The notes under the pieces were generated by a model. That model made no database searches. It saw only the letters and a list, made by a program, of their open reading frames with translations, and was not told the origin of the DNA. A DNA stretch of 34,615 nucleotides from a virus. Positions 128-34,488 of this stretch are shown here, piece by piece. The stretch's first letter is position 1; the number at the start of each line of letters is the position of its first letter. The DNA lies in IMG/VR virus record IMGVR_UViG_3300031418_000062. One strand, given 5' to 3'. Position numbers and translations under genes: made by a program.

Positions 128-290
128 TGCGCGCGCATAAGAAAACCTACGCTTAGGGGGGACCCGTCCCCCCTGAGACCCCCCAGGGGTAGAAAGAGAA
201 GGAAACCGGCTGAAACCCGCATGGATGCTAGAGGCGACCGCAAGAATTTGGAGGATGACCGAAAATTTTTTGCACAAGTATGCAAACCTT

Positions 291-1028: not shown

Positions 1029-1376
1029 ATGCCCGATCAAGTCACTCTCCTGTTTGAGGACCAGGGGCGGCCGCTGCCGCTCCACCGGCTGGCGTTTCCC
1101 CAGCCGGCCTACGACGGCGCGTTCTCGTTCAAGGAAGTGCATGTGTCGCAGCTCAAGCGGACATTGCCGGTCGCGCGCCTGGTGGACGGCGTAGGCCAGG
1201 ACGTGGTGGCCCCGCTGTACGATGCGAAGCTGTTGTGGATGGAAGGCGGGGAAGCGCGCGTGACTGGCATCGAGATAGACGAGCTGTCGCAGCGTCGAAC
1301 GGTGCAGACCTGGAACGTGCGCTTTGCAGGATGGCAGGACGCCGGCGCCGTGGCGCGCCGGGATCCGGCCGGCTAG
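1029..1376 (+). CDS. Hypothetical protein (115 aa)
   Basis: The ORF starts 9 nt after the preceding stop and has high GC3. Its stop overlaps the portal gene stop on the other strand (shared CTAG at 1373-1376). No recognisable motif. Confidence 0.5.
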   Translation: MPDQVTLLFEDQGRPLPLHRLAFPQPAYDGAFSFKEVHVSQLKRTLPVARLVDGVGQDVVAPLYDAKLLWMEGGEARVTGIEIDELSQRRTVQTWNVRFAGWQDAGAVARRDPAG

Positions 1377-2422: not shown

Positions 2423-4200
2423 GAGTAGATCTCCATAATGCTGGTGTTGTTTGAGGTCGCGCCCTCGAGCGGTTCGTTGCCGAGCGCGTGCAGGGTGGCC
2501 CAGGCCAGGTCGGCGTGGCCGGTCTCCTGGCTATAGCCGGCGGTGTAGGTAATTTGGCGGCCGCTCGCCGTGACGGTTTTCTTGATCGACATGAAGGACT
2601 GCGCCATGTCCGTCCAGCCGGCATCGAATTCCAGGCGGCCGCCACGGACTACAGACAAGCCTTTGAGGACCAGGCGGCTTTTCACCTCGGGCGAGTAGTG
2701 CAGCCCTACCACGCTCGGATAGAACGTGCGCACCAGCTGGTAGACGCCCTGACCGATGCCGGTCTGGTCGATCGCCATGTAGGCGACGTTGTAGCGCTCA
2801 GTGATTTGTTTGATGCTGCGCGCCTGCGCTTCGAAGTCCATGCCGCGCCACTGGTGTTTCTCCAGTACGCGGAACTTGCCACCTGGGACCAATGGCGGTG
2901 CGACCACGACACAGCTGGCCTGGTCACCAGACATTGCCGGGTCGTAGCCGACCCAGACGGGGCGATGTCCGAATGGGCGCAGCGCGAACGGTTTCACGTC
3001 CTCCCACTCCACCCAGGAATCGACCATGCAGCGCTGCAGCTCGGCCAGCGGGAAAATGCTCTGGCTGTCGTCCACGAACTGGCACATGAGGAGGTTCGCG
3101 TACTCCTCGGGGCTGTATTCCCGGCGCAGCTCCTCCAGGTCGAACAGGTCGCAGCCGGAATTGGCTGCATCCTCGACCGTCACCATTTGCCGCCACTGGC
3201 CATCGGCGCACGCGCGGCCGGCCGCCAGGGCGGCGTGGCTTACGTCCAGCTGGATATGCTCGGCCTTCGCGCGGCCGCGGTTGGCGTGGTCGCCAGTCCA
3301 GAACGGATAGGCCTCATGCGACATGCTCGACGGCGTGGAAAAGTAGGTCTTGCGCCAATGCTTGTGCATGGCCATGCCCGAGGCGACCTTGTTCAGATTT
3401 TTGAAGCCTGGCACCCAGAAGTACTCGTCAAAGTAAAAATTGCCGTGGTAGCTCTGGGCGGTGCGCGCATTCGTGCTCAAGAAAATCAGCTCGGCCGCGT
3501 TCGGCAGCACGATGGTCTCGCCGGCCAGCTCGACGTCGGCCGCCTCGCGCGCGAACTGGCAGATGTATTGCCGGAACACGTTCGCCTGTGCCTTGCTGGC
3601 CGATAGGAAGATCTGGTTGCGGCCGGTCTCCAGCGCGTCGACGAAGGCCTCCCGCGAGAAATACCAGGTGGCGCCGATCTGGCGACTCTTGAGCAGGTTG
3701 CGCGTGCGCTGCTCGCCATTCCGGTACCAGACCTTCTGGTAGTTGAACAGCGAATCATGGAAGGCCTGCAGGATCCGGGCCTGCTGCTCCTCCGTGACGT
3801 TGTTGCGCTCGGGTTTCTTCTTCGGGCCGGCATTGCGCGCTTCGATGTTCGGGTTGAGGTCCTTTTCCTTCCCGGTCTCGCCGTACCTGCTGATCCGCGC
3901 CGTGCGCTCCAGCTGGCGGGTGAGCAGGTCGATTTCCTTGTAGTCCCCGCCGGTCTTGCCGTCCTTGGCAATGAGCAGGGATAGCCGCGCCTCGATCGAG
4001 GCGTCGACCCGCTCCACCGTGCCGGCCTTTTCCCATTCGTCGCGCTGCTTCCAGGATTCCACCGTGGCCCTGTTCAGGCCGAGCTCACGCGCAATGAACG
4101 ACACCCGCCACCCCTGGAAGTAGAGGAGGCGAGCGGCGCGGCGTGGGTCGATCTCAGTCTCGGCCGCGGTGGGGTCGGGGGTAGTGTTGATTTCAAGCAT
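2419..4200 (-). CDS. P: Terminase large (ATPase) subunit (P2 gpP family)
   Basis: About 593-605 aa, translationally coupled to Q (ATGA overlap at 2419-2422). Contains a KSRQIGATWYFSREAF P-loop-like block and a C-terminal nuclease-like region. The start is uncertain: ATG at 4200 or GTG at 4236. Confidence 0.93.
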   Translation of the reverse strand: MLEINTTPDPTAAETEIDPRRAARLLYFQGWRVSFIARELGLNRATVESWKQRDEWEKAGTVERVDASIEARLSLLIAKDGKTGGDYKEIDLLTRQLERTARISRYGETGKEKDLNPNIEARNAGPKKKPERNNVTEEQQARILQAFHDSLFNYQKVWYRNGEQRTRNLLKSRQIGATWYFSREAFVDALETGRNQIFLSASKAQANVFRQYICQFAREAADVELAGETIVLPNAAELIFLSTNARTAQSYHGNFYFDEYFWVPGFKNLNKVASGMAMHKHWRKTYFSTPSSMSHEAYPFWTGDHANRGRAKAEHIQLDVSHAALAAGRACADGQWRQMVTVEDAANSGCDLFDLEELRREYSPEEYANLLMCQFVDDSQSIFPLAELQRCMVDSWVEWEDVKPFALRPFGHRPVWVGYDPAMSGDQASCVVVAPPLVPGGKFRVLEKHQWRGMDFEAQARSIKQITERYNVAYMAIDQTGIGQGVYQLVRTFYPSVVGLHYSPEVKSRLVLKGLSVVRGGRLEFDAGWTDMAQSFMSIKKTVTASGRQITYTAGYSQETGHADLAWATLHALGNEPLEGATSNNTSIMEIYS

Positions 4201-19439: not shown

Positions 19440-22400
19440 ATGTCGAACGATCTGAGATTACGAGTGCTGTTCAACCTGGCCGACAGCATCACCGGGCCCC
19501 TGCGCAATATCCGGCAAGGGAACGACGACGTCGCCAAGTCTTTGCGGGAAACTCGGAACCGCCTCAAGGAGCTGAACAAGACCCAGGCCGAGATCGGCGC
19601 GCTGCGCGAGCTGCGCACCGGCATGGCGGCCACGGCCGGCGAGCTGAACGCGGCCAAGACCCGGGTGGCGTCGCTCGCCCAGGCGCTCCACGCAAACGGC
19701 CCGCCAACCCAGGCAATGGTCCGGGACTTCGAACAGGCCCGGACGGCCGCGCGCGCGCTGCAGGACCAGCACCGCCAGCAATACGTCCAGCTGCATCAAC
19801 TCCGCACCGGCCTGGCCGGCGCCGGCATCGACACCCGCAACCTGTCCCAGCACGAGCGCGACCTGCGCCAGAACATCCAGGCCACCACGGCCGACATGCA
19901 ACGCCAGCAGCAACAGCTGGCCGAGCTGGCCGCGCGCGAGCGCCGCCTGGGCGAGGCCCGGGCGCGCATGCAGCGCACCCAGGAGACCGCCGGCAAGATG
20001 ACCAGCACCGGCGCGGGCATGGCTGCAGCCGGCGCCGTCACCACGGCCGCGCTGTCGGTCCCTGTGACCGAATACGCGAAGGCCGAGGACTCGGCCACCC
20101 AGCTGTCCGGCGCCCTGATGCGCGCCGGCGGCGTGGTCCCTCCCGAGTTCGAGAAAATCAACGCCCTGGCCATGAAGCTGGGCGATCGCCTGCCCGGCAC
20201 CACGTCGGACTTCCAGGACATGATGACGATGCTGACCCGCCAGGGCATCTCGGCGCAGACCATCCTGGGCGGCATGGGCGAGGCGGCCGCGTACCTGGGC
20301 GTGCAGCTGAAAAAGACGCCGGCAGAGGCGGCCGAGTTCGCGGCCAAGATGCAGGACGCGACCAAGACCACCGAAAAGGACATGCTCAGCCTGATGGACG
20401 TGATTCAGCGGACCTTCTACCTGGGCGTGGACGATAACAACATGCTCAACGGCATGGCCAAGCTCAGCCCGGCCATGGACACGATCAAGATGAAGGGCCT
20501 GGAAGGGGCCAAGGCCGTGGCGCCGCTGCTGGTGATGGCCGACCAGTCCGGCATGGCCGGCGAAGCCGCGGGCAACGCCTACCGGAAGATCTTCCAGATG
20601 GGCATGGACAAGAAGAAGATCGACAAGGCCAACAAGGGTCTGGCGCCGGCGCAGCGCCTGGACTTTACCGATGGAAAGGGCGAATTCGGCGGCTTTGACA
20701 AGATGTTCAAGCAGCTGGACAAGCTCAAGGGCCTGACCACGCAAAAGCGCCTGTCTGTCCTCAAGGAAGTTTTCGGGGATGATGCCGAAACGCTGCAAGT
20801 CGTCTCCCTGCTGATGGAGAAAGGCGTCGACGGCTACCGCGAGGTGCAGGGCAAGATGGCCGCCCAGGCCTCCCTGCAGGAGCGCGTCAACCAGCAGCTC
20901 GGCACCCTGAAAAACCTGTGGGAAGCTGCCGGCGGCACCTTCACCAACACCATGGTGGCCTTCGGTGAAACGCTCGCCCCCGAATTGAAGGCAACCACGG
21001 AATGGCTCGGAGACACGGCCCAGAAGATGGGCGCATGGGCGCGCGAGAACCCGCGTTTGTCTGGTGGCCTGATGAAAACCGTGGCCGCCCTCGGGATCCT
21101 GCTCACCGTCGGCGGCGCGCTGCTGGTGATGCTCGGGACCGTCCTCGGCCCCCTGGCAATGCTCAAGTTCAGCCTGACCACCCTCGGCATGCAGGGCGGC
21201 CTCATGGCGAACGTGTTCCGGATGGCCATATCACCGCTCAAGCTGCTGGGCCAGGCCGTGCTATTCATCGGCCGCGCCATGCTGATGAACCCCATCGGCC
21301 TGGCAATCACCGGGATCGCCGTCGCCGCCTTCCTGATCTACAAGTACTGGGGCCCCATCAAGGAATTCTTTGGCGGTCTGTGGGACCAGGTGAAAGCCGC
21401 GTTCAACGGCGGCATCGGCGCGATCGGCGCCCTGCTGGTGAACTGGTCGCCAGCCGGGCTGTTCTACCGAGCCTTCGCCGGCGTGATGTCCTATTTCGGC
21501 ATCGACATGCCTTCCAAGCTGTCGCAGTTCGGCGCGAACATCATCACCAGCCTGGCCACCAGCCTGGCCCCGATCGGCGCCTTTGTCGGCGGATTGTGGG
21601 ACCAGATAAAGACGGCTTTCAACGGGGGCATCGGCTCGATCGGCGCCCTCCTGGCTAACTGGTCCCCGGTCGGGCTGTTCTACCAGGCCTTCGCCGCGGT
21701 GATGTCCTATTTCGGGATCGACCTGCCGGCCAAGTTCTCGACCTTCGGGGCGAACATCATCGCCGGCCTGGTCAACGGCATCACCGGCGGCCTGGGATCC
21801 GTCCAGACCGCAATCACGGCGGCCGCCGACAGCACGGTGGCCTGGTTCAAGGAAAAACTGGGAATCAAGAGCCCGAGCCGGGTGTTTGGCGAGCTGGGCG
21901 GCTTCATCAGCCAAGGCGCCGCTGTCGGGATCGAAGGCGAGCAGGGAAAGGTAGCCAAGGCGATCGCGGCCCTGGCAACGGTCGCCTCGGCCACGTTCAC
22001 GCCTGCTGTCACTGTTGCCGCCCAGCTGCCCACGACGCCGCCGGCGCAGCTGCAGCCGGTGGTGGCCGCGGCCAAGTCGCCGGCAGCGGCACCGGCACCG
22101 GCCCAGCTGCAGCCGGTGGTGGCCGTGGCGAAGTCGCCGGCAGCAGCGCCGGCACCGACCCAGCTGCAGCCAATGGCGGCCGCGGCCAAGTCGCCGGCAG
22201 CGGCACCGGCACCGGCCCAGCTGCAGCCAATGGCGGCCGCGGCCAAGTCGCCGGCAGCGGCGGCGGCGCCGGCCCAGCTGCAGCCGGTGGTGGCCGTGGC
22301 GAAGTCGCCGGCAGCGGCGGCGGCGCCGGCCCAGCTGCAGCCAGTGGCGGCCGCGGCGAAGTCGCCGGCAGCGGCGGCGCCGCCGGCCCAGCTGCAGCCG

Positions 22401-22925
22401 GTGGTGGCCGTGGCGAAGTCGCCGGCAGCGGCACCGGCACCGACCCAGCTGCAGCCAATGGCGGCCGCGGCCAAGTCGCCGGCAGCGGCGGCGGCGCCGG
22501 CCCAGCTGCAGCCGGTGGTGGCCGTGGCGAAGTCGCCGGCGGCGGCGGCGCCGGCCCAGCTGCAGCCGGTGGTGGCCGTGGCGAAGTCGCCGGCGGCGGC
22601 GGCGGCGCCGGCCCAGCTGCAGCCAGTGGCGGCCGCGGCGAAGTCGCCGGCAGCGGCGGCGCAGCCGGTGACGGCCGCGGCCAAGGCGTCGATCGTCAAC
22701 CCGGTCCCGATCGACACGCGCGCATCCGTGCTCACGCCGAAGGCCGGCGCAGGATCCGCAGCTGGCGGCGCCGGCGCTGCAGGTGGCGGGAATAACACGT
22801 ACACCATCAACATCAACCCCGCTCCAGGGATGGACCCGGCCGCGATCGCGCGCGCCGTGGCCGCTGAACTGGACCGCCGCGAGCGCGCGAAGCAGTCGCG
22901 CATCGGCTCGCGCCTGACCGATTGA
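19440..22925 (+). CDS. T: Tail tape measure protein (P2 gpT family) with an internal 72-aa duplication and an 11-copy 19-aa tandem repeat
   Basis: 1161 aa. It has a helical N-terminus, hydrophobic central segments and sits between E/E' and U. Confidence 0.92.
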   Translation: MSNDLRLRVLFNLADSITGPLRNIRQGNDDVAKSLRETRNRLKELNKTQAEIGALRELRTGMAATAGELNAAKTRVASLAQALHANGPPTQAMVRDFEQARTAARALQDQHRQQYVQLHQLRTGLAGAGIDTRNLSQHERDLRQNIQATTADMQRQQQQLAELAARERRLGEARARMQRTQETAGKMTSTGAGMAAAGAVTTAALSVPVTEYAKAEDSATQLSGALMRAGGVVPPEFEKINALAMKLGDRLPGTTSDFQDMMTMLTRQGISAQTILGGMGEAAAYLGVQLKKTPAEAAEFAAKMQDATKTTEKDMLSLMDVIQRTFYLGVDDNNMLNGMAKLSPAMDTIKMKGLEGAKAVAPLLVMADQSGMAGEAAGNAYRKIFQMGMDKKKIDKANKGLAPAQRLDFTDGKGEFGGFDKMFKQLDKLKGLTTQKRLSVLKEVFGDDAETLQVVSLLMEKGVDGYREVQGKMAAQASLQERVNQQLGTLKNLWEAAGGTFTNTMVAFGETLAPELKATTEWLGDTAQKMGAWARENPRLSGGLMKTVAALGILLTVGGALLVMLGTVLGPLAMLKFSLTTLGMQGGLMANVFRMAISPLKLLGQAVLFIGRAMLMNPIGLAITGIAVAAFLIYKYWGPIKEFFGGLWDQVKAAFNGGIGAIGALLVNWSPAGLFYRAFAGVMSYFGIDMPSKLSQFGANIITSLATSLAPIGAFVGGLWDQIKTAFNGGIGSIGALLANWSPVGLFYQAFAAVMSYFGIDLPAKFSTFGANIIAGLVNGITGGLGSVQTAITAAADSTVAWFKEKLGIKSPSRVFGELGGFISQGAAVGIEGEQGKVAKAIAALATVASATFTPAVTVAAQLPTTPPAQLQPVVAAAKSPAAAPAPAQLQPVVAVAKSPAAAPAPTQLQPMAAAAKSPAAAPAPAQLQPMAAAAKSPAAAAAPAQLQPVVAVAKSPAAAAAPAQLQPVAAAAKSPAAAAPPAQLQPVVAVAKSPAAAPAPTQLQPMAAAAKSPAAAAAPAQLQPVVAVAKSPAAAAPAQLQPVVAVAKSPAAAAAPAQLQPVAAAAKSPAAAAQPVTAAAKASIVNPVPIDTRASVLTPKAGAGSAAGGAGAAGGGNNTYTININPAPGMDPAAIARAVAAELDRRERAKQSRIGSRLTD
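22041..22664 (+). repeat. In-frame tandem repeat, 11 copies of 57 nt (one copy 54 nt), encoding PAQLQPVVAVAKSPAAAAA-type units inside the tape measure gene
   Basis: Units start at 22041, 22098 and so on, with period 57. The copies differ by a few substitutions (V/M, A/P). Confidence 0.95.
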
Positions 22926-26171: not shown

Positions 26172-26778
26172 TCTGCAGCCGGTCCCGATCGGCGGCCGGC
26201 ACAACCTCCGCGACATAGCCCGGGCTATCGCACGACATACGCAGCGATCCATCCACCATGTGCTGGATCCTGCGGAAATAAGCATGGGTATCATCGAAGC
26301 GCACCAGGTAAAGCCCATCTGCAGACTGCTGAGCGCAATTCACCAGGACCACGTGCCCTTCGGGTAGCGTGTCCGCCATAGCATCCCCCACCACCCGCAC
26401 GGCGATAACGTCACCAGCTTCCAGTCGCTCCTGGTCAAGCCATTGCCGCGGCACGTACCAGGATTGTTCCTCGAACGCCTTCGGCCAGTCCATCGCATCC
26501 AATAATGGCACCTCGACCATGTGGGCCGGGATCGGGGCCGGCGCCGCGCCGCCGGCTTCCTTTGTGCCCCTTCCCAGAATCAGCCAGTCCAGGCTGATAT
26601 TCCGATCGAGCGCAAAAATGACGCATTCGTCATAGGGGATTGAGCCCCGATTCTTTAGCACGCTGATAAAGCCGCGCGACCCACCAAGCACCTCGGATAA
26701 CTCTTTGTCTAATTGGATGCCAAGCACAGTTTTCATTCTGTCGATTATGTCTGTTACGGATGGCTTATTTTGTTCCAT
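26131..26778 (-). CDS. cI: CI-like immunity repressor: N-terminal HTH plus a degenerate S24 (LexA/CI/UmuD-type) C-terminal domain
   Basis: The N-terminus LGIQLDKELSEVLGGSRGFISVLKNRGSIP is HTH-like. The C-terminus aligns with the S24 fold but reads GDAM instead of G(D/N/M)SM, and AYFRRI instead of FTVKKL. The 3' end overlaps the recombinase gene by 41 nt. Confidence 0.85.
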   Translation of the reverse strand: MEQNKPSVTDIIDRMKTVLGIQLDKELSEVLGGSRGFISVLKNRGSIPYDECVIFALDRNISLDWLILGRGTKEAGGAAPAPIPAHMVEVPLLDAMDWPKAFEEQSWYVPRQWLDQERLEAGDVIAVRVVGDAMADTLPEGHVVLVNCAQQSADGLYLVRFDDTHAYFRRIQHMVDGSLRMSCDSPGYVAEVVPAADRDRLQIIGYCHSVVRAVR

Positions 26779-27156
26779 TTTTGAGCTTTACATTGCAAAA
26801 GGTTGTCCGAAGTTGCTGCGCGGAACCGGAGTAGAGCGTACAATTTACGGAGCGCAATGTTGGCTTACAAAATGTTACTTTTATTGTAATCACGCATTGC
26901 AAATTGTAGTTCTGACATCCACTTTCTTGCCATTTGTCACTGAGAAACACTGTACGGATATACAGTATTATTGAGCCTTACACAGTGATCGCGGTTGGCT
27001 GTTGAGAGTGGGAAACGACGCCGGTGCGCGAGGGGATTATCTACCGAACAGCATCTATCGCCTATGAAAAAGGCGTAACGGCATAGCAATAATGCCGCAA
27101 AGCAATAAAAGGAACGGTTTGGACTTGTCCGCCAGGGATCGCCAGGAATTACACAA
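26779..27156. promoter_or_regulatory. Immunity switch region (divergent promoters/operators), AT-rich relative to the genome
   Basis: 378 nt with no credible ORF. CATTGCAAA repeats at 26791 and 26895, with an inverted cattgcg at 26853-26859. Also the inverted repeat TTACAA/TTGTAA (26865-26889), cactgt/acagtg (26948/26982) and the LexA box. Confidence 0.6.
26950..26965. promoter_or_regulatory. LexA (SOS) box CTGT-N8-ACAG in the cI/ogr switch region
   Basis: cACTGTacggatatACAGTa matches 16 of 20 positions of the E. coli-type consensus TACTGTATATATATACAGTA, with both CTGT and ACAG arms perfect. Confidence 0.65.
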
Positions 27157-27414
27157 ATGAGCCTGAGAATTACAATCTGTTGCCCACATTGCGAATCGAA
27201 AGCAAACGCGCGCACCAGCAAGGCGCTTTCCGCTACCTTGAGGGAAATAGTTTACGTTTGTGTAGACCCTGAGTGCGGACATACCTACGTTGCGCAGCTT
27301 GAGGTGGTTCGTACTCTTTCGCCGTCGGCAAAACCTAAAAAAGACATCCGGCTCCCGATTTCGCCACACGTAATGGCGATGTTGAGAGAACAGCTGGAGT
27401 TATTACCCGCGTGA
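27157..27414 (+). CDS. ogr: Ogr/Delta-family zinc-finger late-gene activator
   Basis: CPHCESKANARTSKALS...REIVYVCVDPECGHTY has the CxxC...RTS...C....C pattern and spacing of P2 Ogr / P4 Delta. Confidence 0.85.
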   Translation: MSLRITICCPHCESKANARTSKALSATLREIVYVCVDPECGHTYVAQLEVVRTLSPSAKPKKDIRLPISPHVMAMLREQLELLPA

Positions 27415-27764
27415 TCGAAGAGAAACCTATGCACAAAGCCATGCAACCTAATCCGCTTTACACCCTTGCAATCGAATTTCTGCAGCAACACCAGGACGAG
27501 CATCTGACACCGGATCGCCCCCGCCTCATCGCCCGTTGCGCTTATCACCTGATCGACCGCGCGACGGCCAGCCTGGACGAAGCCACGGACGTGGCCCGGC
27601 AAGCCTTTGGCGAGCTGACGGCCGGCACCTGCCGCTCCTATATCAACCTTGACCTCACCACGAGTTACGCCCTCTTCATCAACGGCCCGGACGGCAAGAA
27701 GCGCTGCTACCCGCTGCCGGAAGTGCTGCGCGTGATTCGCCAGGCTGCGGCCGGCGCCCTGTAA
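27411..27764 (+). CDS. Hypothetical early protein (111-117 aa)
   Basis: ORF coupled to ogr (GTGA overlap; alternative ATG at 27429). No recognisable motif. Confidence 0.55.
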   Translation: MIEEKPMHKAMQPNPLYTLAIEFLQQHQDEHLTPDRPRLIARCAYHLIDRATASLDEATDVARQAFGELTAGTCRSYINLDLTTSYALFINGPDGKKRCYPLPEVLRVIRQAAAGAL

Positions 27765-27846
27765 TACCCAACCACGACTAGACCCTGCCGCAGCTGGAGA
27801 CGCTGCGGCAATACCACGTGGTGACGCCCGAGAAAGAGGTTGCAAG

Positions 27847-30624
27847 ATGGCTAATATTGACGAAGTAAAACGGATCGTAAACCCTCGGCTGCATGACCTG
27901 GCCTCCAGGCTCGGCATCAAGCAGGGAAAGGGTGGCGACGATGCGCTGTATCACTCGCCGCACCACCCCGACAAGAATCCCTCCCTGTCGATCTACATCG
28001 ACCATCCCAAGCACGGCACCGGCTGGAAGGACCACAGCGGCGACGCCGGCGGCTCCTGCATCGACATGGTGATGTTCACCCAGGGCTGCAGCGCCTCCGA
28101 TGCCCTGAAATACCTGCACCAGGAATACGCGATCCCCTTCGACACTCCGGATAAGCCGGCCCAGGAAAACAAGAGCATGGTCGAGTACATTGCCGACCGC
28201 TGCATCGCCGCCCGCGAGAAGGTGCGGGACTACCTGCAGGGCCGCGCGATCGGCGCCGGCGCGATCGATGCCGCGCTGCGCGCCAAGACCCTGGGATTCA
28301 ACGAATGGACCAGCCCGAAGAAACAACCAGGTGAGGTGGGCTATGGCGGCCCGGCTGCGGCCTTCATCGTGCGCTCGCCCGACACCAGCCAAGTGGTGGC
28401 CGTCGACATGCGCTTCCTGGATCCGGCCCAGAATGGCGACGTCAAGACGCAGGCCCAGGGCGAGAAGGACGGCTACTACTGGACCGCCGACCCCCGCAAG
28501 CTCGAGCGCGCCCAGCGCGTGTACGTGGTCGAAAGCCCGATCAACGCCCTGTCGATCGACACCTGCAGCATCCCCAAGACTGCAGCGATCGCCCTCCGCG
28601 GCCTCAGCAACGCGTCGACCATCGACCTGGCCTTCCTGCAGGGCAAACAGGTGGTGATCTGCATGGACAACGACGAGCCCTTCCCGGACGGCCACCAGCG
28701 CGCCGGCCAGCGTCCCGGCCCAGAGGCCGCCTGGATCCTGTACGAGCGCCTGACCGCCATCAACATCAGCGCAGTCCTGGTCGACCAGGAGGAGTGGGAC
28801 AAGGTTGAAGGCGACGAGAACGGCGGCAAGCCGATCAACGACGTGAACGACTACCTGCAGGCGCGCGGCGCGCAGAAGCTGGCCAAGGCCCTGGACACCT
28901 ACGAGACCTGGCTGATCGCCGGCATGGCCGGCAACGTCTCGCGCAAGGGCCGGGCGCGCGTCTACCTGCCAGCACACGATTACGCCCAATACTGGAAATT
29001 CCGGCCGCACCTGGACTTCACCAAGTACATCGCCAGGATGGACGAAAACAAGGAAACCGGCGACGAGACCCCGATCTACCACGACCTGTGCGGTTTCCGG
29101 GTCGCATCCCTGAGCCGGGTATCGGTCGCCAGCTCGACCGCCACCATGACCGGCGATCGGGACCACTCCCCTACCGTGTACTTTTCCGTGACGGTCCAAG
29201 TTCCCCGCCACGGCCCCGAGCTGGTCCGCAAGGTCCTGATGGACGACCAGCTGCACAACACGAACACCTGGACGAAGTTCGGCCCGATCTGGAAGCCGGC
29301 CGAATTCTCGCGCATGGTGAGCATCCTCGAGCGCACCGCGGATCTCGGCGCACGCAAGGCCGCCAACTTCGTGGGCCTGGCCTGGCTCGACGGCCGCCTG
29401 GCTGTCAACGAGGGGCCGGACTGCTATTTCACCGAAGCCGAGAAGCAATGCACGTATCACAACCTGACGTTCCCTTCCGGGCCGACCGCGAACGCGCGCA
29501 GGGTCATCAAAGCGTATCAGGCCACCTACACCAGCAACGCCGGCGCGATCCCCCTGGTCTGGGCACTCGGCGGCCACCTCAAGGCCTTCCTGGGATTCTG
29601 GCCACACATCACGATGCAGGCCGACAAGGGCGCCGGCAAGTCCACCCTGGTGAAGCGCCTCGAGCGCTCCCTGGCCTTCACCATGTTCTCGGGCCAGAGC
29701 CTGCAGACGGAATTCCGCCTGATGACCAGCATCAGCTACACCAGCCATCCGGTTGGCTGGGAGGAGCTGAGCGCCCGCCGCACCGACGTGATCGACAAGG
29801 CCGTGGCGATCCTGCAGGAGTCGTATCAGTACACCACTACCAAGCGCGGCTCCGAAATGACCGAGTTCCTGCTGTGCGCGCCGGTGATGCTGGCCGGCGA
29901 GGACGTGCCCGTTAAGAGCCTCACCGGCAAGGTGGTCCGGACGGATCTGACCAACAAGGCCAACGGCTTCATGGCCGACGACCTGCCCCACTTCCCAGTG
30001 CGCCAGTGGCTGGAATTCCTGACCAAGCTCGACAAGGCCACCGTGCTGGAGAAGTACGCCGGGCTGCGCGAGTACTGCCTGAAAAACAGCCGCGCCGGCG
30101 GCGACGACAGCGGCGCCAGGCGCATGGCCGGCAACTACGCGGCCGTGCTGCTGGCCTGGGGACTCCTGGCCGAGTTCGCCGGCATGGACTATTCCGAAGG
30201 TGCATTCGGCAAGGACCTCCTGGCCGAGATGAACGCCCATATTTCGGAGACCAGCAGCGACCGCTCGCCGTGGGTCTGGATCATGGAAACGGCGCTGTCC
30301 GAGATCGACGCCAGCAACTTCAAGCACCCGTACAAGTTCGAAGTGGTGGACGGCAAGGATTGCCTGCTGGTGCGGCCGCAGCACATCATGGACCACCTGT
30401 CGAGCTCCTCGAGCCTGCGCGAGAAGTGGAATTCTCTGCCGGTCAAGACCGCTGCAGTGTTCAAGCGTCAGATGATGTCGGCCGGGATCCTGTTGCTGGA
30501 CGAAGCCGGGAAGCCCAAGGAACTGGAGCGGACCATTTTGATGCGCCGCGTTGGCCACCTCTCCGCGATCCCGCTCGAGGCCTTGAACAACTTCGGCCTG
30601 TCGGTCGGCTGGCGGAACGAGTAG
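27847..30624 (+). CDS. Bifunctional primase-helicase-like replication protein (degenerate zinc-finger region, toprim domain, P-loop NTPase)
   Basis: 925 aa. Toprim motifs VYVVESPINALS and VVICMDNDEP, and Walker A ADKGAGKST. The overall layout resembles P4 alpha / DUF927-type phage-plasmid primase-helicases. Confidence 0.85.
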   Translation: MANIDEVKRIVNPRLHDLASRLGIKQGKGGDDALYHSPHHPDKNPSLSIYIDHPKHGTGWKDHSGDAGGSCIDMVMFTQGCSASDALKYLHQEYAIPFDTPDKPAQENKSMVEYIADRCIAAREKVRDYLQGRAIGAGAIDAALRAKTLGFNEWTSPKKQPGEVGYGGPAAAFIVRSPDTSQVVAVDMRFLDPAQNGDVKTQAQGEKDGYYWTADPRKLERAQRVYVVESPINALSIDTCSIPKTAAIALRGLSNASTIDLAFLQGKQVVICMDNDEPFPDGHQRAGQRPGPEAAWILYERLTAINISAVLVDQEEWDKVEGDENGGKPINDVNDYLQARGAQKLAKALDTYETWLIAGMAGNVSRKGRARVYLPAHDYAQYWKFRPHLDFTKYIARMDENKETGDETPIYHDLCGFRVASLSRVSVASSTATMTGDRDHSPTVYFSVTVQVPRHGPELVRKVLMDDQLHNTNTWTKFGPIWKPAEFSRMVSILERTADLGARKAANFVGLAWLDGRLAVNEGPDCYFTEAEKQCTYHNLTFPSGPTANARRVIKAYQATYTSNAGAIPLVWALGGHLKAFLGFWPHITMQADKGAGKSTLVKRLERSLAFTMFSGQSLQTEFRLMTSISYTSHPVGWEELSARRTDVIDKAVAILQESYQYTTTKRGSEMTEFLLCAPVMLAGEDVPVKSLTGKVVRTDLTNKANGFMADDLPHFPVRQWLEFLTKLDKATVLEKYAGLREYCLKNSRAGGDDSGARRMAGNYAAVLLAWGLLAEFAGMDYSEGAFGKDLLAEMNAHISETSSDRSPWVWIMETALSEIDASNFKHPYKFEVVDGKDCLLVRPQHIMDHLSSSSSLREKWNSLPVKTAAVFKRQMMSAGILLLDEAGKPKELERTILMRRVGHLSAIPLEALNNFGLSVGWRNE

Positions 30625-30725
30625 CGCGCCGGCCGGCGCCGACCTGGTGGGCCAGCTGCTGCAGCGGCTCACCAGGTCGACGGCCAGCTGCTCGAGCTCG
30701 AGGCGATCGCCGTCGAGTCGGATGC
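30622..30725 (+). repeat. Dispersed palindrome-rich element, copy C (starts at the primase-helicase stop codon)
   Basis: TAGCGCGCCGGCCGGCGCCgacctggtgggccagctgctgcagcgg ctcaccaggtcgacggccagctgctcgagctcgaggcgatcgcc. Both sub-motifs of the 138-bp unit are present, in the reverse-complement orientation. Confidence 0.85.
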
Positions 30726-30874
30726 GGGACACATAGGAAATTTATTGCACCGCCATAAACGCGTGGGTGCAAATGTTGGCGATAATACAGCGGCCGCCTT
30801 GCGCGGCCCGCTTCACTGAATATGCTGCCAGGCCGCCCTGGTGGCTCCCCGACAGTTGCTGCATAGGCGACTGT

Positions 30875-32628: not shown

Positions 32629-32663
32629 GGTTTTCCTTTCGTTCTGGACTTGATGCGCTGATT

Positions 32664-32751
32664 GTATCTCTACATCATGTTGATATCAACATGAGATTGA
32701 ATAAATATTTATATCGTATCTACTTGATGTTAATACCATGTTGATATTAAG
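32664..32751. promoter_or_regulatory. AT-rich cluster of TTGATATCAA-type boxes (centromere/origin candidate)
   Basis: An 18-bp perfect palindrome CATGTTGATATCAACATG (32676-32693), then cttgatgttaatac (32723) and CATGTTGATATTAAG (32737-32751). The preceding GTATCT..TAC context is duplicated (32664 and 32715). Confidence 0.55.
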
Positions 32752-32880
32752 CGACACTAGCGCCCGCCTCGAGCCATGCCCAGCACCTGGTCGACCCCGC
32801 GGCCGCCTATGAAACCGGGCCAAGACGGCGCCGGCGGCCGCCGGTTTCCACTCGCCAGCAGCAGGGCACAGGCAGCACAG

Positions 32881-33256
32881 AAAACCCGGGGATTTATGCC
32901 CTCTTGTGACGTAAGTCATTGATTCTTGAGCAACTACCATCCCCGAACTACCCCCGAAAATCCCCGGATATGCTGAGTTTTTCCACGGCGGGCCTCATTT
33001 CTTCCATGGTTGTGGCCGGCGCCGTCCTCCTACTTCTTTCTTTTTTTTAGCTATGAAAAGAGAGAGGAATAGAGGGAAGGAAAGAATTTCGCGCATCCCC
33101 GACCCGCACCCGCATTTCCCCGACTTTTCCCCGCTGCCTAAATTTTCATCCCCGGGTTCCCCGACCTTTCCACGGCCTTTTCGTGGATGGTGGGGGATGG
33201 AAATTTCTTAGGAATCAGGTACTTACGCCAACATCCACGGCATCCCCCGATCCCCG
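32881..33256. repeat. Iteron-like cluster of (A/T)TCCCCG(A/G) motifs (at least 10 copies) flanking a polypyrimidine/polypurine dyad
   Basis: TCCCCG occurs at 32940, 32961, 33096, 33117, 33128, 33149, 33158 and 33251. CCCCCG occurs at 32951 and 33244, with an inverted copy at 32881-32895. TCCACGG occurs at about 32982, 33168 and 33234. The Py tract is 33025-33048 and the Pu tract 33055-33086. Confidence 0.7.
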
Positions 33257-33640
33257 GCGTGCGCTGCCTGGGGGGTGTTCGGGTTCCTTTTTCTGAGCCA
33301 TAGGGTTTTGCCCCTCGCTAGAACGCATCAAAACCGCCTACAGGCGCATCAAACCGCATCAGGTGACGCGGCCAGCAAATCGGCTGAAGGCCGCACCAGG
33401 CCTGTTTCCGGCCGGCTCCTGGGGCTGCATTAGAACCAGGCCCCCAAGCGAAGCCCGGAGGCGGGGAGGGGCCTCCGCAGCAGCGGGGCAGGCGGCCTTG
33501 CCTTGGGGATCCCCCTCCAGGAGCCCCAGGGGGCCGCCCAGGGCGTCGCAGGCGCTGCGCACGGTGCGCGGACGCTCTGCGGCACCTCCAACCGTGCGCG
33601 CGTCATAGAGGCCCGTTTGATGCGTCTGGCCAGGTGCATT

Positions 33641-34054
33641 GGCGGCGATCGCACGCCTCGAGCTCGAGCAGCTGGCCGCCGACCAGGTTGCGCACCAGGT
33701 GCGGCCGCGGCGCCGGCGGGATCCTGCAGCTGCAGCAGCTGGTCGACCAGGTGGATCCGACCCGGGCTGGCCAGCGCCGGCGGCGATCGCGCGCCTCGAG
33801 CTCGAGCAGCTGGACGCCGACCAGGTTGCGCACCAGGTGCGGCCGTGGCGCCGGCGGGATCCTGCAGCTGCAGCAGCTGGTCGACCAGGTGGATCCGGCC
33901 CGGGCTGGCCAGCGCCGGCGGCGATCGCGCGCCTCGAGCTCGAGCAGCTGGACGCCGACCAGGTTGCGCACCAGGTGCGGCCGCGGCGCCGGCGGGATCC
34001 TGCAGCTGCAGCAGCTGGTCGACCAGGTGGATCCAGCCCGGGCTGGCCAGCGCG
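33641..34054. repeat. Three tandem copies of a 138-bp unit built from perfect palindromes
   Basis: Units start at 33641, 33779 and 33917 and differ by only a few substitutions. Each contains GCGATCGC, CTCGAGCTCGAG, CAGCTG, CTGCAGCTGCAG, CTGGTCGACCAG, GGATCC, CCCGGG and TGGCCA. Confidence 0.95.
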
Positions 34055-34060
34055 CCGAGC

Positions 34061-34088
34061 GTGTTTGTGTTTGTGTTGTTGTTTGTGT
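34061..34088. repeat. GT-rich microsatellite (gtgtttgtgtttgtgttgttgtttgtgt)
   Basis: Low-complexity TG/TTG tract directly abutting the tandem array. Confidence 0.85.
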
Positions 34089-34129
34089 CGTCCAGGTGCG
34101 TGGACTGAACAGCAGGCTTGCATGGGTTA

Positions 34130-34168
34130 CGCATCCTGGTGCGTAGTACTGCGCATCCTGGTGCATAG
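34130..34168. repeat. Two 17-bp direct repeats CGCATCCTGGTGC(G/A)TAG spaced 22 bp start to start (iteron-like)
   Basis: 34130-34146 and 34152-34168. A related cgcatcctcggcgc lies at 34447-34460. Confidence 0.75.
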
Positions 34169-34488
34169 GTGTAGTAAAAGCCAACGGGACACCTGCCCGC
34201 GCTCCCGCTTGGGTTGCGCACCGATTTCCTACGGAAACCGGCACGCCCGGTTACGCGGGTGAACCCGTAAAATCAAAACCCGAAAACCCCGAAATGCAAC
34301 TAACCCATGACTCGGCCAGCGACACAGGCAGGCCACCAGGTTGGAGGCCGCCCTACAGGCCGTTGATCTGACGGCAGGGGCGATTTGAGTCCGAGGACCG
34401 ATGCCGAAGGCGAGGGAGCGAGGATGGCCCGTTAGGGCCACCCCTGCGCATCCTCGGCGCTCCTCCAGAGCGTCCGGTTGTTAGCGGG

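Follow-up and report, generated by a model that had tools for sequence, protein, structure and literature searches.

The IMG/VR virus record IMGVR_UViG_3300031418_000062, a stretch of 34,615 nucleotides that is referred to in full as the window, ends with a 127-bp copy of its own start and hence corresponds to a circle of 34,488 bp. It encodes a P2-type portal protein and large terminase, Ogr, a CI-type repressor, a Toprim primase, and a small ParA (219 aa) with a ribbon-helix-helix (RHH) partner (101 aa), the last two identified through Pfam and PHROGs matches. Given this gene content, the homologues of its RepL protein and the existence of separate contigs with the same gene order from Duganella sp. 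SG902 (34.3 kb) and Massilia dura (38.9 kb), the element is a P2-like phage with added plasmid modules, that is, a phage-plasmid, most likely of the Oxalobacteraceae. Here we consider its gene-free gap, which on the circle comprises 32629-34488 and 1-411, ~2.3 kb in all. This gap would represent the pooled cis-acting DNA of the phage-plasmid, holding, rightwards from the par operon, the par control region, the phage origin, cos, GC-rich filler and a RepL plasmid origin; its unusual length would then result from the insertion of two plasmid modules beside the phage's own origin and cos.

A first-pass annotation, made from the nucleotide sequence, had described this region as lacking credible genes, and ORF, GC-frame and gene-caller evidence bears this out. 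The GC frame signal is flat across 32650-33350 and 34050-411. Genuine genes, to which that annotation had looked as counter-evidence, did not emerge: in the Duganella and Massilia relatives, where the corresponding gaps measure 1.8-2.3 kb, independent gene callers predict 0 and 1 genes. The continuation of the gap across the circular junction agrees with the 127-bp terminal duplication, and each of the repeats that had been listed is present in the window. The ORFs of 170-263 aa that lie in six frames over a tandem array in the gap, previously dismissed as shadows open in all frames, have no significant Pfam match, yielding a few weak ones that all fall under the curated cut-offs. A tRNA scan found none in the gap, and the proposed Rfam covariance scan returned 0 families at the gathering threshold across the window and in 8 related loci. 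The best sub-threshold Rfam match, Cupriavidus-1 at 33360-33415 on the plus strand (23.7 bits versus a threshold of 45.5, E = 1.1), falls into the interval from the CGCATCAAA repeats to cos (see below), and its structure is not obviously kept in relatives. A DNA search of the whole gap against phage and plasmid collections gave short matches only, which served as leads to cos (phage Menos), the phage origin (AP3 and Momento) and the folded element S discussed below (pHB2a and a Collimonas plasmid).

A probable RepL plasmid origin between cos and the portal gene

The gap is followed by a gene (412-1020) whose product has 475 homologues, many of which, at 58-71% identity, carry PF05732 (RepL). 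By tblastn, relatives of this protein are found on 134 plasmids, many annotated as RepL. The protein itself has no match in Pfam, PHROGs or NCBIfam; judging from its homologues, it is probably a member of the RepL family. The DNA upstream of the gene would constitute a complete RepL plasmid origin, in which element S and a G6 hairpin precede a DnaA-box-like box, five iterons and the promoter of repL, and which is placed in the cargo slot between cos and the portal gene. This slot contains filler, S, the RepL origin (152-411), repL and orf115 in the window; in the sister phages PK23 and FUB41, the same interval is occupied by toxin-antitoxin genes. orf115 (1029-1376, plus strand), which separates repL from the portal gene, shows a strong coding signal and zero family matches; the Duganella and Massilia relatives lack it, their repL directly adjoining the portal gene.

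The G6/C6 hairpin CTTAGGGGGGAC-CC-GTCCCCCCTGAG (152-177, plus strand) is reminiscent of the palindromic single-strand priming (ssi) signal of pHW126-like RepL plasmids, and its stem covaries in two related loci (L020 and L021). It resembles a G-run hairpin, TGGGGGGAAC...GTTCCCCCCA, that precedes the iterons of a small Klebsiella plasmid; the Rep of this plasmid is related to RepL, and we take the plasmid to be of the pHW126 kind. A role of this hairpin as cos, considered on account of the likeness between AGGGGGGACC and the second half of the PK23 end, was rejected in view of this covariation and of the Klebsiella counterpart. Further downstream lies the conserved box TGAAACCCGCATGGATGCT (211-229), a 19-mer that is near-invariant in 6 of 7 family members and occurs in inverted orientation beside the iterons of Rep_3 plasmids. 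The box resembles a DnaA box, a resemblance only, and, by analogy, appears to correspond to the 'conserved region' described for RepL-type origins. The 15-bp iterons or operators of RepL, (G/C)ACCGAAARAATAAG, span 236-402 on the plus strand, with direct copies at 236, 257, 333 and 388 and an inverted one at 295; their columns are invariant across seven family members. The iterons overlap the repL promoter (plus strand; -35 TTAACT at 351-356, -10 TATGAT at 374-379), and a 25-nt inverted repeat occupies 284-308/334-358.

In pHW126-like plasmids, the order of parts is ssi, conserved region, iterons, inverted repeat and rep, with the ssi being dispensable, although plasmids without it reach a higher copy number and form more multimers (10.1101/2022.12.05.519187; PMC6854812). 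The window keeps the order of parts that pHW126, pIGRK and pIGMS31, the initiators of which are distantly related to RepL, display upstream of rep: hairpin (152-177), box (211-229), iterons with one inverted copy (236-402) and an overlapping promoter, the latter being overlapped by the inverted repeat in both cases. However, the window RepL is only ~34% identical to the Rep of the small Klebsiella plasmid, the iterons are 15 bp long and present in five copies, one of them inverted, and the replicon sits within a phage genome. Nor has a counterpart been reported for element S, which is 440 nt long and has a core of four helices.

Structure of element S

Element S is ~440 nt long and extends over 34176-34488 and 1-136 on the plus strand. 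Its 5' part comprises, in this order, the M1 hairpins with an A-rich linker (34176-34297), a GC-rich connector, the core (34374-34447), a 74-nt four-helix junction closed by GCAGGGG/CCCCTGC, and hairpin M3 (34455-34477) with the loop CTCCA. The 3' part, M4 (1-136), consists of three hairpins, namely, GGGAGGC-TGTG-GCCTCCC (26-43) followed by CCTTG, TGCGCCGCG...CGCGGGGCA (51-72) followed by GTCT, and GCGCGC-TGC-GCGCGC (122-136), all on the plus strand.

The covariation of the core was computed on 45 distinct sequences. Across the four helices, 99.2% of the cells are paired and 7 pairs are changed on both sides; none of 500 shuffles was as good, and controls with slid helices were 38-51% paired. 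The stems vary (CAGGGG/CCCCTG, TGGGGG/CCCCCA, CTGGGG/CCCCAG, CATGGG/CCCATG), whereas ~35 unpaired bases are near-invariant. By eye, the stems of the M1, M3 and M4 hairpins behave similarly, and M4 is kept, with compensating stem changes, in L013, L017, L019, L027, L020 and the Rep_3 plasmids. Quantification was restricted to the core because alignment gaps spoil the consensus fold of the whole element: with RNAalifold on 31 sequences, the two strands came out close in energy (-51 and -63), and the global structure was poor. When S is folded as DNA, the plus strand reaches -105.7 kcal/mol (z = -3.76), compared to -95.5 kcal/mol (z = -1.34) for the minus strand, and within the core G-T pairs outnumber A-C pairs 5 to 1, favouring the plus strand. 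S folds as a single strand, most probably the plus strand, and its structure is preserved through compensatory change, as in single-strand signals, among which its predicted priming activity would place it.

In five related loci (L017, L019, L027, L020 and L021; alignment A3), a different segment takes the place of the core, one that is longer, GC-rich and structured-looking, with M1 and M4 being kept. Neither S nor this replacement segment of the phage-plasmid relatives has a match in Rfam, and the sequence of the S core was not found in a literature text search.

Distribution of S and its relation to plasmid initiators

Element S is not restricted to phage-plasmids. Positions 34204-34477 match non-coding DNA upstream of rep in the small plasmids pHB2a and pHB2b, and the 72-bp core matches a Collimonas plasmid 570 bp upstream of repL. 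Scans of species-representative genomes and metagenome contigs with a pattern of the S core, from which chance matches were filtered out, identified 12 contigs among the former, all from Oxalobacteraceae, and 83 among the latter, a few of them chance matches. After filtering, S is present in 85 loci, upstream of three or more kinds of initiators. In the 37 loci with Rep_3, S and rep are invariably co-oriented (37/37), and rep starts 343-503 bp downstream of the core. A RepL relative is encoded in 23 loci, with co-orientation of S and repL in 16, and other initiators are found in 8.

The smallest replicon with S is the 2.2-kb circular plasmid L038 (contig Ga0187844_10038078), recognized from two occurrences of the S core 2,207 bp apart on a contig of 2,330 bp. 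It carries a RepL gene, a CopG-like gene, S and four GTTGCTAAGG iterons, the latter located directly upstream of repL; its backbone is visibly more AT-rich than the window. Three other contigs (L047, L050 and L097) are head-to-tail repeats of plasmids of 4.6-5.2 kb.

Taken together, these data suggest that S is a host-dependent, strand-specific accessory of replication origins, recognized by host factors, which would read it irrespective of the particular initiator. By analogy, S is most likely a single-strand priming signal of the ssi/sso type, which would be exposed upon origin unwinding or strand displacement and then serve for priming. We favour this function because S sits where the ssi lies in pHW126-like plasmids, and because its GAA triloops and GTGCAGYC tail recall RSF1010 ssiA, the sequence of which was confirmed; the tail is present in some copies of S. 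Like the known ssi and sso elements (RSF1010 ssiA/ssiB, the G4-type ssiA of R1, ssoA/ssoU), S is non-coding and strand-specific, keeps structure over sequence in its stems, lies a few hundred base pairs from the binding sites of the initiator, and is common, as a cassette, to plasmids with unrelated initiators in one host group. Unlike these elements, however, S has a core in the form of a four-helix junction with ~35 near-invariant unpaired bases, which is more elaborate than the known ssi hairpins. Furthermore, only the central core is swapped between relatives, the flanking M1 and M4 being kept, and its putative priming function is not accompanied by sequence homology to the ssi elements that were checked. 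We tentatively propose, at slightly less than even odds, that S represents a previously undescribed family of host-dependent, strand-specific origin accessories, a cassette with exchangeable flanking modules that is swapped among Rep_3, RepL and other replicons of Oxalobacteraceae and their relatives and was captured, along with RepL, by a P2-like phage, where it would act as a new priming signal or a replication-linked RNA.

The principal alternative is that S acts as RNA, being a non-coding RNA gene, a structured leader or a primer RNA that is transcribed towards repL and functions in replication control or on a host target. The multi-helix junction, strong covariation and near-invariant junction bases are indeed features of functional RNAs, and the excess of G-U over A-C pairs on the plus strand is of the same kind. 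Several GAGG/GGA motifs are present in the core junctions, and the loop of M3, CCUCC, resembles an anti-Shine-Dalgarno sequence; in pHB2a, moreover, S lies just downstream of co-oriented genes, which makes read-through transcription possible. Nevertheless, no -35/-10 elements are conserved upstream of S in 26 Rep_3 plasmids, conservation beginning abruptly at M1, and neither a promoter nor a terminator was predicted around S on the plus strand. Rfam matches are lacking, the fixed orientation relative to the initiator gene in the Rep_3 plasmids fits an origin component, and GAA triloops with a closing C-G pair are typical of stable mini-hairpins of DNA. An RNA function of S appears unlikely, although it is the most viable of the alternatives.

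Considerably less probable is that S or its M1 part mimics an origin of transfer (oriT) for conjugative mobilization, or that the S core is a cos site by which small plasmids would ride in P2-like capsids. The oriT comparison originates in the M1 sequence CCGATTTCC-TAC-GGAAACCGG followed by CACGCCC (34219-34247; L001 3050-3095), which resembles the RSF1010 oriT repeat CCAGTTTCTC-GAA-GAGAAACCGG, confirmed in 200 plasmid records, down to a similarly placed A-C mismatch. However, M1 lacks the nick motif TAAGTGCGCCCT, its inverted repeat instead preceding CACGCCCGG, and pHB2a carries a canonical MOBQ oriT elsewhere, GCAAAC-GAA-GTTTGC-ATTAAGTGCGCCCT at 3060-3090; accordingly, M1 was rejected as the primary oriT of the plasmids. 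The cos interpretation draws on the 7 bases GGCGAGG, with which the P2 cohesive end begins and which are also contained in the core. Yet the freely varying stems and fixed loops are the signature of a folded strand rather than of a duplex site bound by a protein, S is present on plasmids of 2-5 kb, and a much better cos alignment exists at 33421-33478, so that this role of the core was rejected as well.

The probable origin of the Toprim primase

The Toprim primase of the window (27847-30624, plus strand; 925 aa, Toprim_3 at 3.9e-17) is probably a primase-helicase. A 984-aa ORF on the opposite strand (27778-30732) was discarded as a shadow of the primase gene, having zero matches in Pfam, PHROGs, NCBIfam and PDB sequence searches. 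The putative origin served by the primase (32871-33275, plus strand), recognized from iterons, a dyad and alignment with prophage modules, is marked by a cluster of TCCMCG sites: 13 of the 55 in the window fall within the 370 bp of 32887-33256, with ~0.6 expected. A conserved TAAGTCATTGATT box (32912-32924) precedes three sets of (A/T)TCCMCG iterons spaced ~10.5 bp apart (32940-32987, 33096-33174 and 33234-33256), with inverted TCCMCG copies at 33182-33198. The sets flank an AT-rich dyad (33026-33086), in which a pyrimidine tract is mirrored by a purine tract, and TGCGCTGCCTG (33260-33270) closes the module.

The same architecture is kept in the phage-plasmid relatives. More tellingly, in at least 12 prophage loci without ParA, RHH or RepL, the module is found 100-850 bp 3' of the stop codon of the primase gene, the prophage primases being ~67-68% identical to that of the window. 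When the window and prophage modules are aligned column by column, the TAAGTCATTGATT box, the iterons, the dyad, the inverted iterons and TGCGCTGCCTG all match. Since the prophages in which the module directly trails the primase gene have neither ParA nor RepL, comparative evidence assigns it to the Toprim primase rather than to ParA or RepL, and the 2-kb par operon appears to have been inserted between the primase gene and its origin in the phage-plasmids. The primase-helicase would bind the iterons and open the DNA at the easily melted dyad.

In the P4 alpha and staphylococcal pathogenicity island (SaPI) origins, two sets of 6-8-bp iterons with an AT-rich region between them lie next to the gene for a Toprim primase-helicase. 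Like P4 alpha ori/crr and the SaPI ori, the module in the window has short iterons in sets, here three, that flank an easily melted AT-rich region, with linkage to the primase gene in prophages and predicted binding by the initiator. It differs in its iteron, TCCMCG(R), in the mirrored pyrimidine and purine tracts of the central element, in the separation of the primase gene from the origin by the par operon, and in that no second, crr-like site was identified.

The TCCMCG arrays could alternatively represent the parS centromere of the ParA-RHH system or the iterons of RepL. Type Ib centromeres are arrays of short phased repeats, and the TCCMCG arrays lie 250-600 bp upstream of the par promoter, as would suit the former possibility. 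However, besides the occurrence of the module directly behind the primase gene in the prophages devoid of ParA, RHH and RepL homologues, the par operon possesses a palindrome array of its own, and RepL has its own invariant iterons adjoining its gene. We therefore consider either assignment highly improbable.

The cos region

The cos region (33322-33625, plus strand) was delineated by alignment with P2, PK23 and Menos. A weak DNA match to the Burkholderia phage Menos falls within the few hundred bases before the Menos portal gene, and a five-way alignment was built from window positions 33380-33660, the Menos junction, the joined ends of PK23, the PhageTerm-placed start of Milagro and the annotated cosL/cosR of P2. 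In this alignment, the predicted 19-nt cohesive end GGCGGGGAGGGGCCTCCGC (33460-33478, plus strand) lines up without offset with cosL of P2, whose cohesive end is GGCGAGGCGGGGAAAGCAC, and with the opening bases of the PK23 record; it differs from GGCGAGGNGGGG by 1 mismatch, and no other site in the window matches as well. To its left, a conserved flank, TGCATTAGAACC...AAGCGAAGCCCGGA (33426-33459), includes TGCATTA.AACC...AAGC, common to the window (TGCATTAGAACC...CAAGCGAAGCCC), P2 (TGCATTAAAACC...GAAGCGGGC), Menos and PK23. The GGAGGCG.GGAGGGGCCTCC block is kept with at most small changes in L017, L020, L021, L027, L115 and L117, whereas its flanks diverge, and the word GCGCATCAAAACGCA, ~100 bp to the left of cos, recurs in Menos and PK23. 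By its alignment with the other phages, 33322-33625 is a cos region of the P2 type, with a related GC-rich 19-nt end and a conserved flank that terminase would recognize; the exact cut site is a prediction, as the case for it is made by the multi-phage alignment. The contig ends of IMG/VR relatives near 33400-33600 were discounted as evidence of cos, given that they reflect circular overlap at a poly-G/C tract.

The region is bracketed by CGCATCAAA(A/C)C repeats, direct at 33324 and 33345 (plus strand) and inverted at 33616 (minus strand), which are likely accessory sites of cos. A P2-type terminase would cut here, leaving the cohesive end GGCGGGGAGGGGCCTCCGC, with the flanking direct and inverted CGCATCAAA repeats as accessory binding sites. 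The GC-rich end begins with GGCG(A/G)GG.GGGG as elsewhere in the P2 family, and cos has the same orientation towards the portal gene. By contrast, the 3' half of the predicted end differs from those of P2 and PK23, and cos lies 2.4 kb from the portal gene, compared to 0.19 kb in P2, because the RepL replicon fills the interval. The primase origin and cos are adjacent, which fits the expectation for the vicinity of the right end of a P2-type genome.

The par promoter, its operators and a possible centromere

At the left end of the gap (32654-32760, minus strand) lie the promoter and putative operators, and possibly the centromere, of the orf68-orf119-ParA-RHH operon. The promoter comprises a -35 element TTGATA (32689-32684) and a -10 element TACAAT (32666-32661) separated by a 17-bp spacer, with 10 of 12 matches in a promoter scan. 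Its -35 box sits inside the 18-bp perfect palindrome CATGTTGATATCAACATG (32676-32693), which is unique in the window (0 expected by chance); a second copy of the palindrome is located at 32737-32750, the second related site spanning 32721-32750. Palindromes of the form CATCAA-N-TTGATG occur in 2-4 copies at the same place in L020, L021, L027, L115, L117, L118 and L119, and palindrome arrays are found upstream of the same operon in all relatives, even where ParA is only 50-56% identical. We read these palindromes as probable operators, and a sigma-70 promoter overlapping them would control the operon. By analogy with type Ib partition systems, which combine a small Walker ParA, an RHH partner and a repeat array upstream of the operon, as found here, the palindromes probably double as the centromere, an activity that is predicted for them.

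Variable filler and lineage-specific repeats

The remainder of the gap is GC-rich filler. Between the par control region and the phage origin, 32761-32870 is variable, with relatives holding unrelated GC-rich inserts of 0-330 bp at this site; its first part (32761-32838) is a shortened, degenerate copy of a 138-bp unit, to judge from the ordered words that the repeat families D3-D5 have in common with the array of this unit. The second, hypervariable filler, in which near relatives differ completely, extends over 33479-34175. It contains a tandem array of three 138-bp units (33641-34054; identified by TRF and a repeat search), a GT-rich tract (34061-34088) and two 17-bp repeats CGCATCCTGGTGCRTAG with a 22-bp period (34130 and 34152).

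The copies in the array are 96-97% identical to the reference copy, which points to a recent duplication. L027 and L019 retain only one 27-42-nt fragment of the unit, and the GT tract and the 22-bp repeat (2.8 copies) are kept in L027 and are both missing from the close relative L013; the RepL proteins of L027 (over the available part) and L013 are each 97% identical to that of the window. The array thus appears, on comparative grounds, to be a lineage-specific duplication without a conserved role, and because the array, GT tract and 17-bp repeats are unconserved even in near relatives, they are unlikely to be core functional sites. The 17-bp repeats were also considered as a XerCD (cer/dif-like) site, since GGTGCGTAGTA resembles a XerC arm, and rejected, as a XerD arm is missing and the repeats are unconserved.

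That the array encodes a repeat protein, with 33603-34244 (minus strand) and 33634-34146 (plus strand) as candidates, is the least probable of the alternatives that we considered. The unit length is divisible by 3, long ORFs are present, and the array shows a three-base periodicity, with a GC content of 0.90-0.94 at one codon phase. However, all six frames are open, and the values of 0.62-0.72 at the other two phases differ from the pattern of genuine genes in the window, with their low-GC second position. Moreover, no Pfam match reaches the curated cut-off, DNA matches in phage or plasmid collections are lacking, and the array, along with most of the unit, is missing in relatives with RepL proteins 90-97% identical to that of the window.

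Several other properties of the filler can be recorded. Each 138-bp unit contains 19 palindromic hexamers, compared to 4.8 +/- 2.4 expected, the highest density in the genome; these include CTCGAG, CTGCAG, GGATCC, GTCGAC, CAGCTG, CCCGGG and the core of GCGGCCGC. The array lies close to the predicted left end of the virion DNA, on its inner side. The words CTGGTCGACCAGGTG, GGCGGCGATCG and CTGCAGC recur at 32761-32838, at 6050-6390 of L122 and at 3090-3200 of L027, that is, at different spots of the cis region in different relatives, as if the filler were spreading or expanding locally.

Outside the gap, the GC content drops to 0.48-0.50 at 26500-27500, compared to ~0.65 elsewhere; this segment, which includes the CI repressor and Ogr genes, is likely the immunity switch. 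An ORF of 1161 aa (19440-22925), presumably the tail tape-measure gene, contains a 57-bp tandem repeat in 11 copies (19 codons, 80% GC; 22039-22668) and a 216-bp repeat in 1.9 copies (21372-21771).

The gap as a probable composite of phage and plasmid modules

Considering all parts jointly, we conclude, with a probability of roughly 0.7, that the gap combines the par control region, the phage origin, cos, filler and the RepL origin with S as its likely priming signal. What is shown is homology, layout, covariation and genomic context; the binding of proteins, the precise position of the cut and a priming function for S are inferred. Most of the parts add a further member to a known kind, and S is the one that may be new. 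The first-pass annotation had expected the gap to combine oriV, the centromere, cos and control RNAs. Of these, the phage origin, cos, the RepL origin and the operator- or centromere-like par palindromes have now been located by comparison; the control RNAs, for which there is neither an Rfam match at threshold nor a conserved promoter ahead of S, are unsupported. Some of the repeats also change allegiance: the TCCCCG iterons are part of the Toprim primase origin, neither of RepL nor of a centromere, the CGCATCAAAC repeats flank cos, and the hairpin at 26-44 is a part of the much larger conserved folded element S.

Several observations weigh against this reading. S is not co-oriented with rep in 7 loci with RepL and the 8 loci with other initiators, and, beyond the GAA-triloop hairpins and the GTGCAGYC tail resembling RSF1010 ssiA, it has no detectable similarity to the ssi sequences that were checked. 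Furthermore, one feature of the M1 hairpin speaks for the minus strand: its conserved A-C mismatch on the plus strand would there become a G-T pair, and the assignment of S to the plus strand is probable only. The cos cut site is predicted from the alignment alone, a 12-mer match to the cohesive end by itself not being above chance, and the role suggested for the CGCATCAAA repeats is a guess.

The closest organizational parallel is phage-plasmid P1, which has a plasmid replicon (oriR/RepA), a lytic replicon (oriL/RepL) and a par system. The window likewise joins a partition system to two replicons within the genome of one temperate phage and includes a protein of the RepL family. However, the roles are probably reversed, as RepL with its upstream iterons is like a plasmid replicon, and the primase-helicase like a phage replicon. 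In addition, the P1 oriL sits within repL, whereas the iterons of the window lie upstream of the gene, and the virion module of the window is P2-like.

The resulting map suggests a route by which a P2-like phage could become a plasmid, through acquisition of a par operon between the primase gene and its origin and of a RepL replicon in the cargo slot. The wide sharing of S among small plasmids with unrelated initiators points to an unrecognized host-dependent replication step in Burkholderiales. If S is indeed a new priming signal, a host primase or a protein of the primosome would recognize it, and it would rank among the most elaborate signals of this type known; it could then serve as a useful marker for origin annotation and as a vector part for Burkholderiales.

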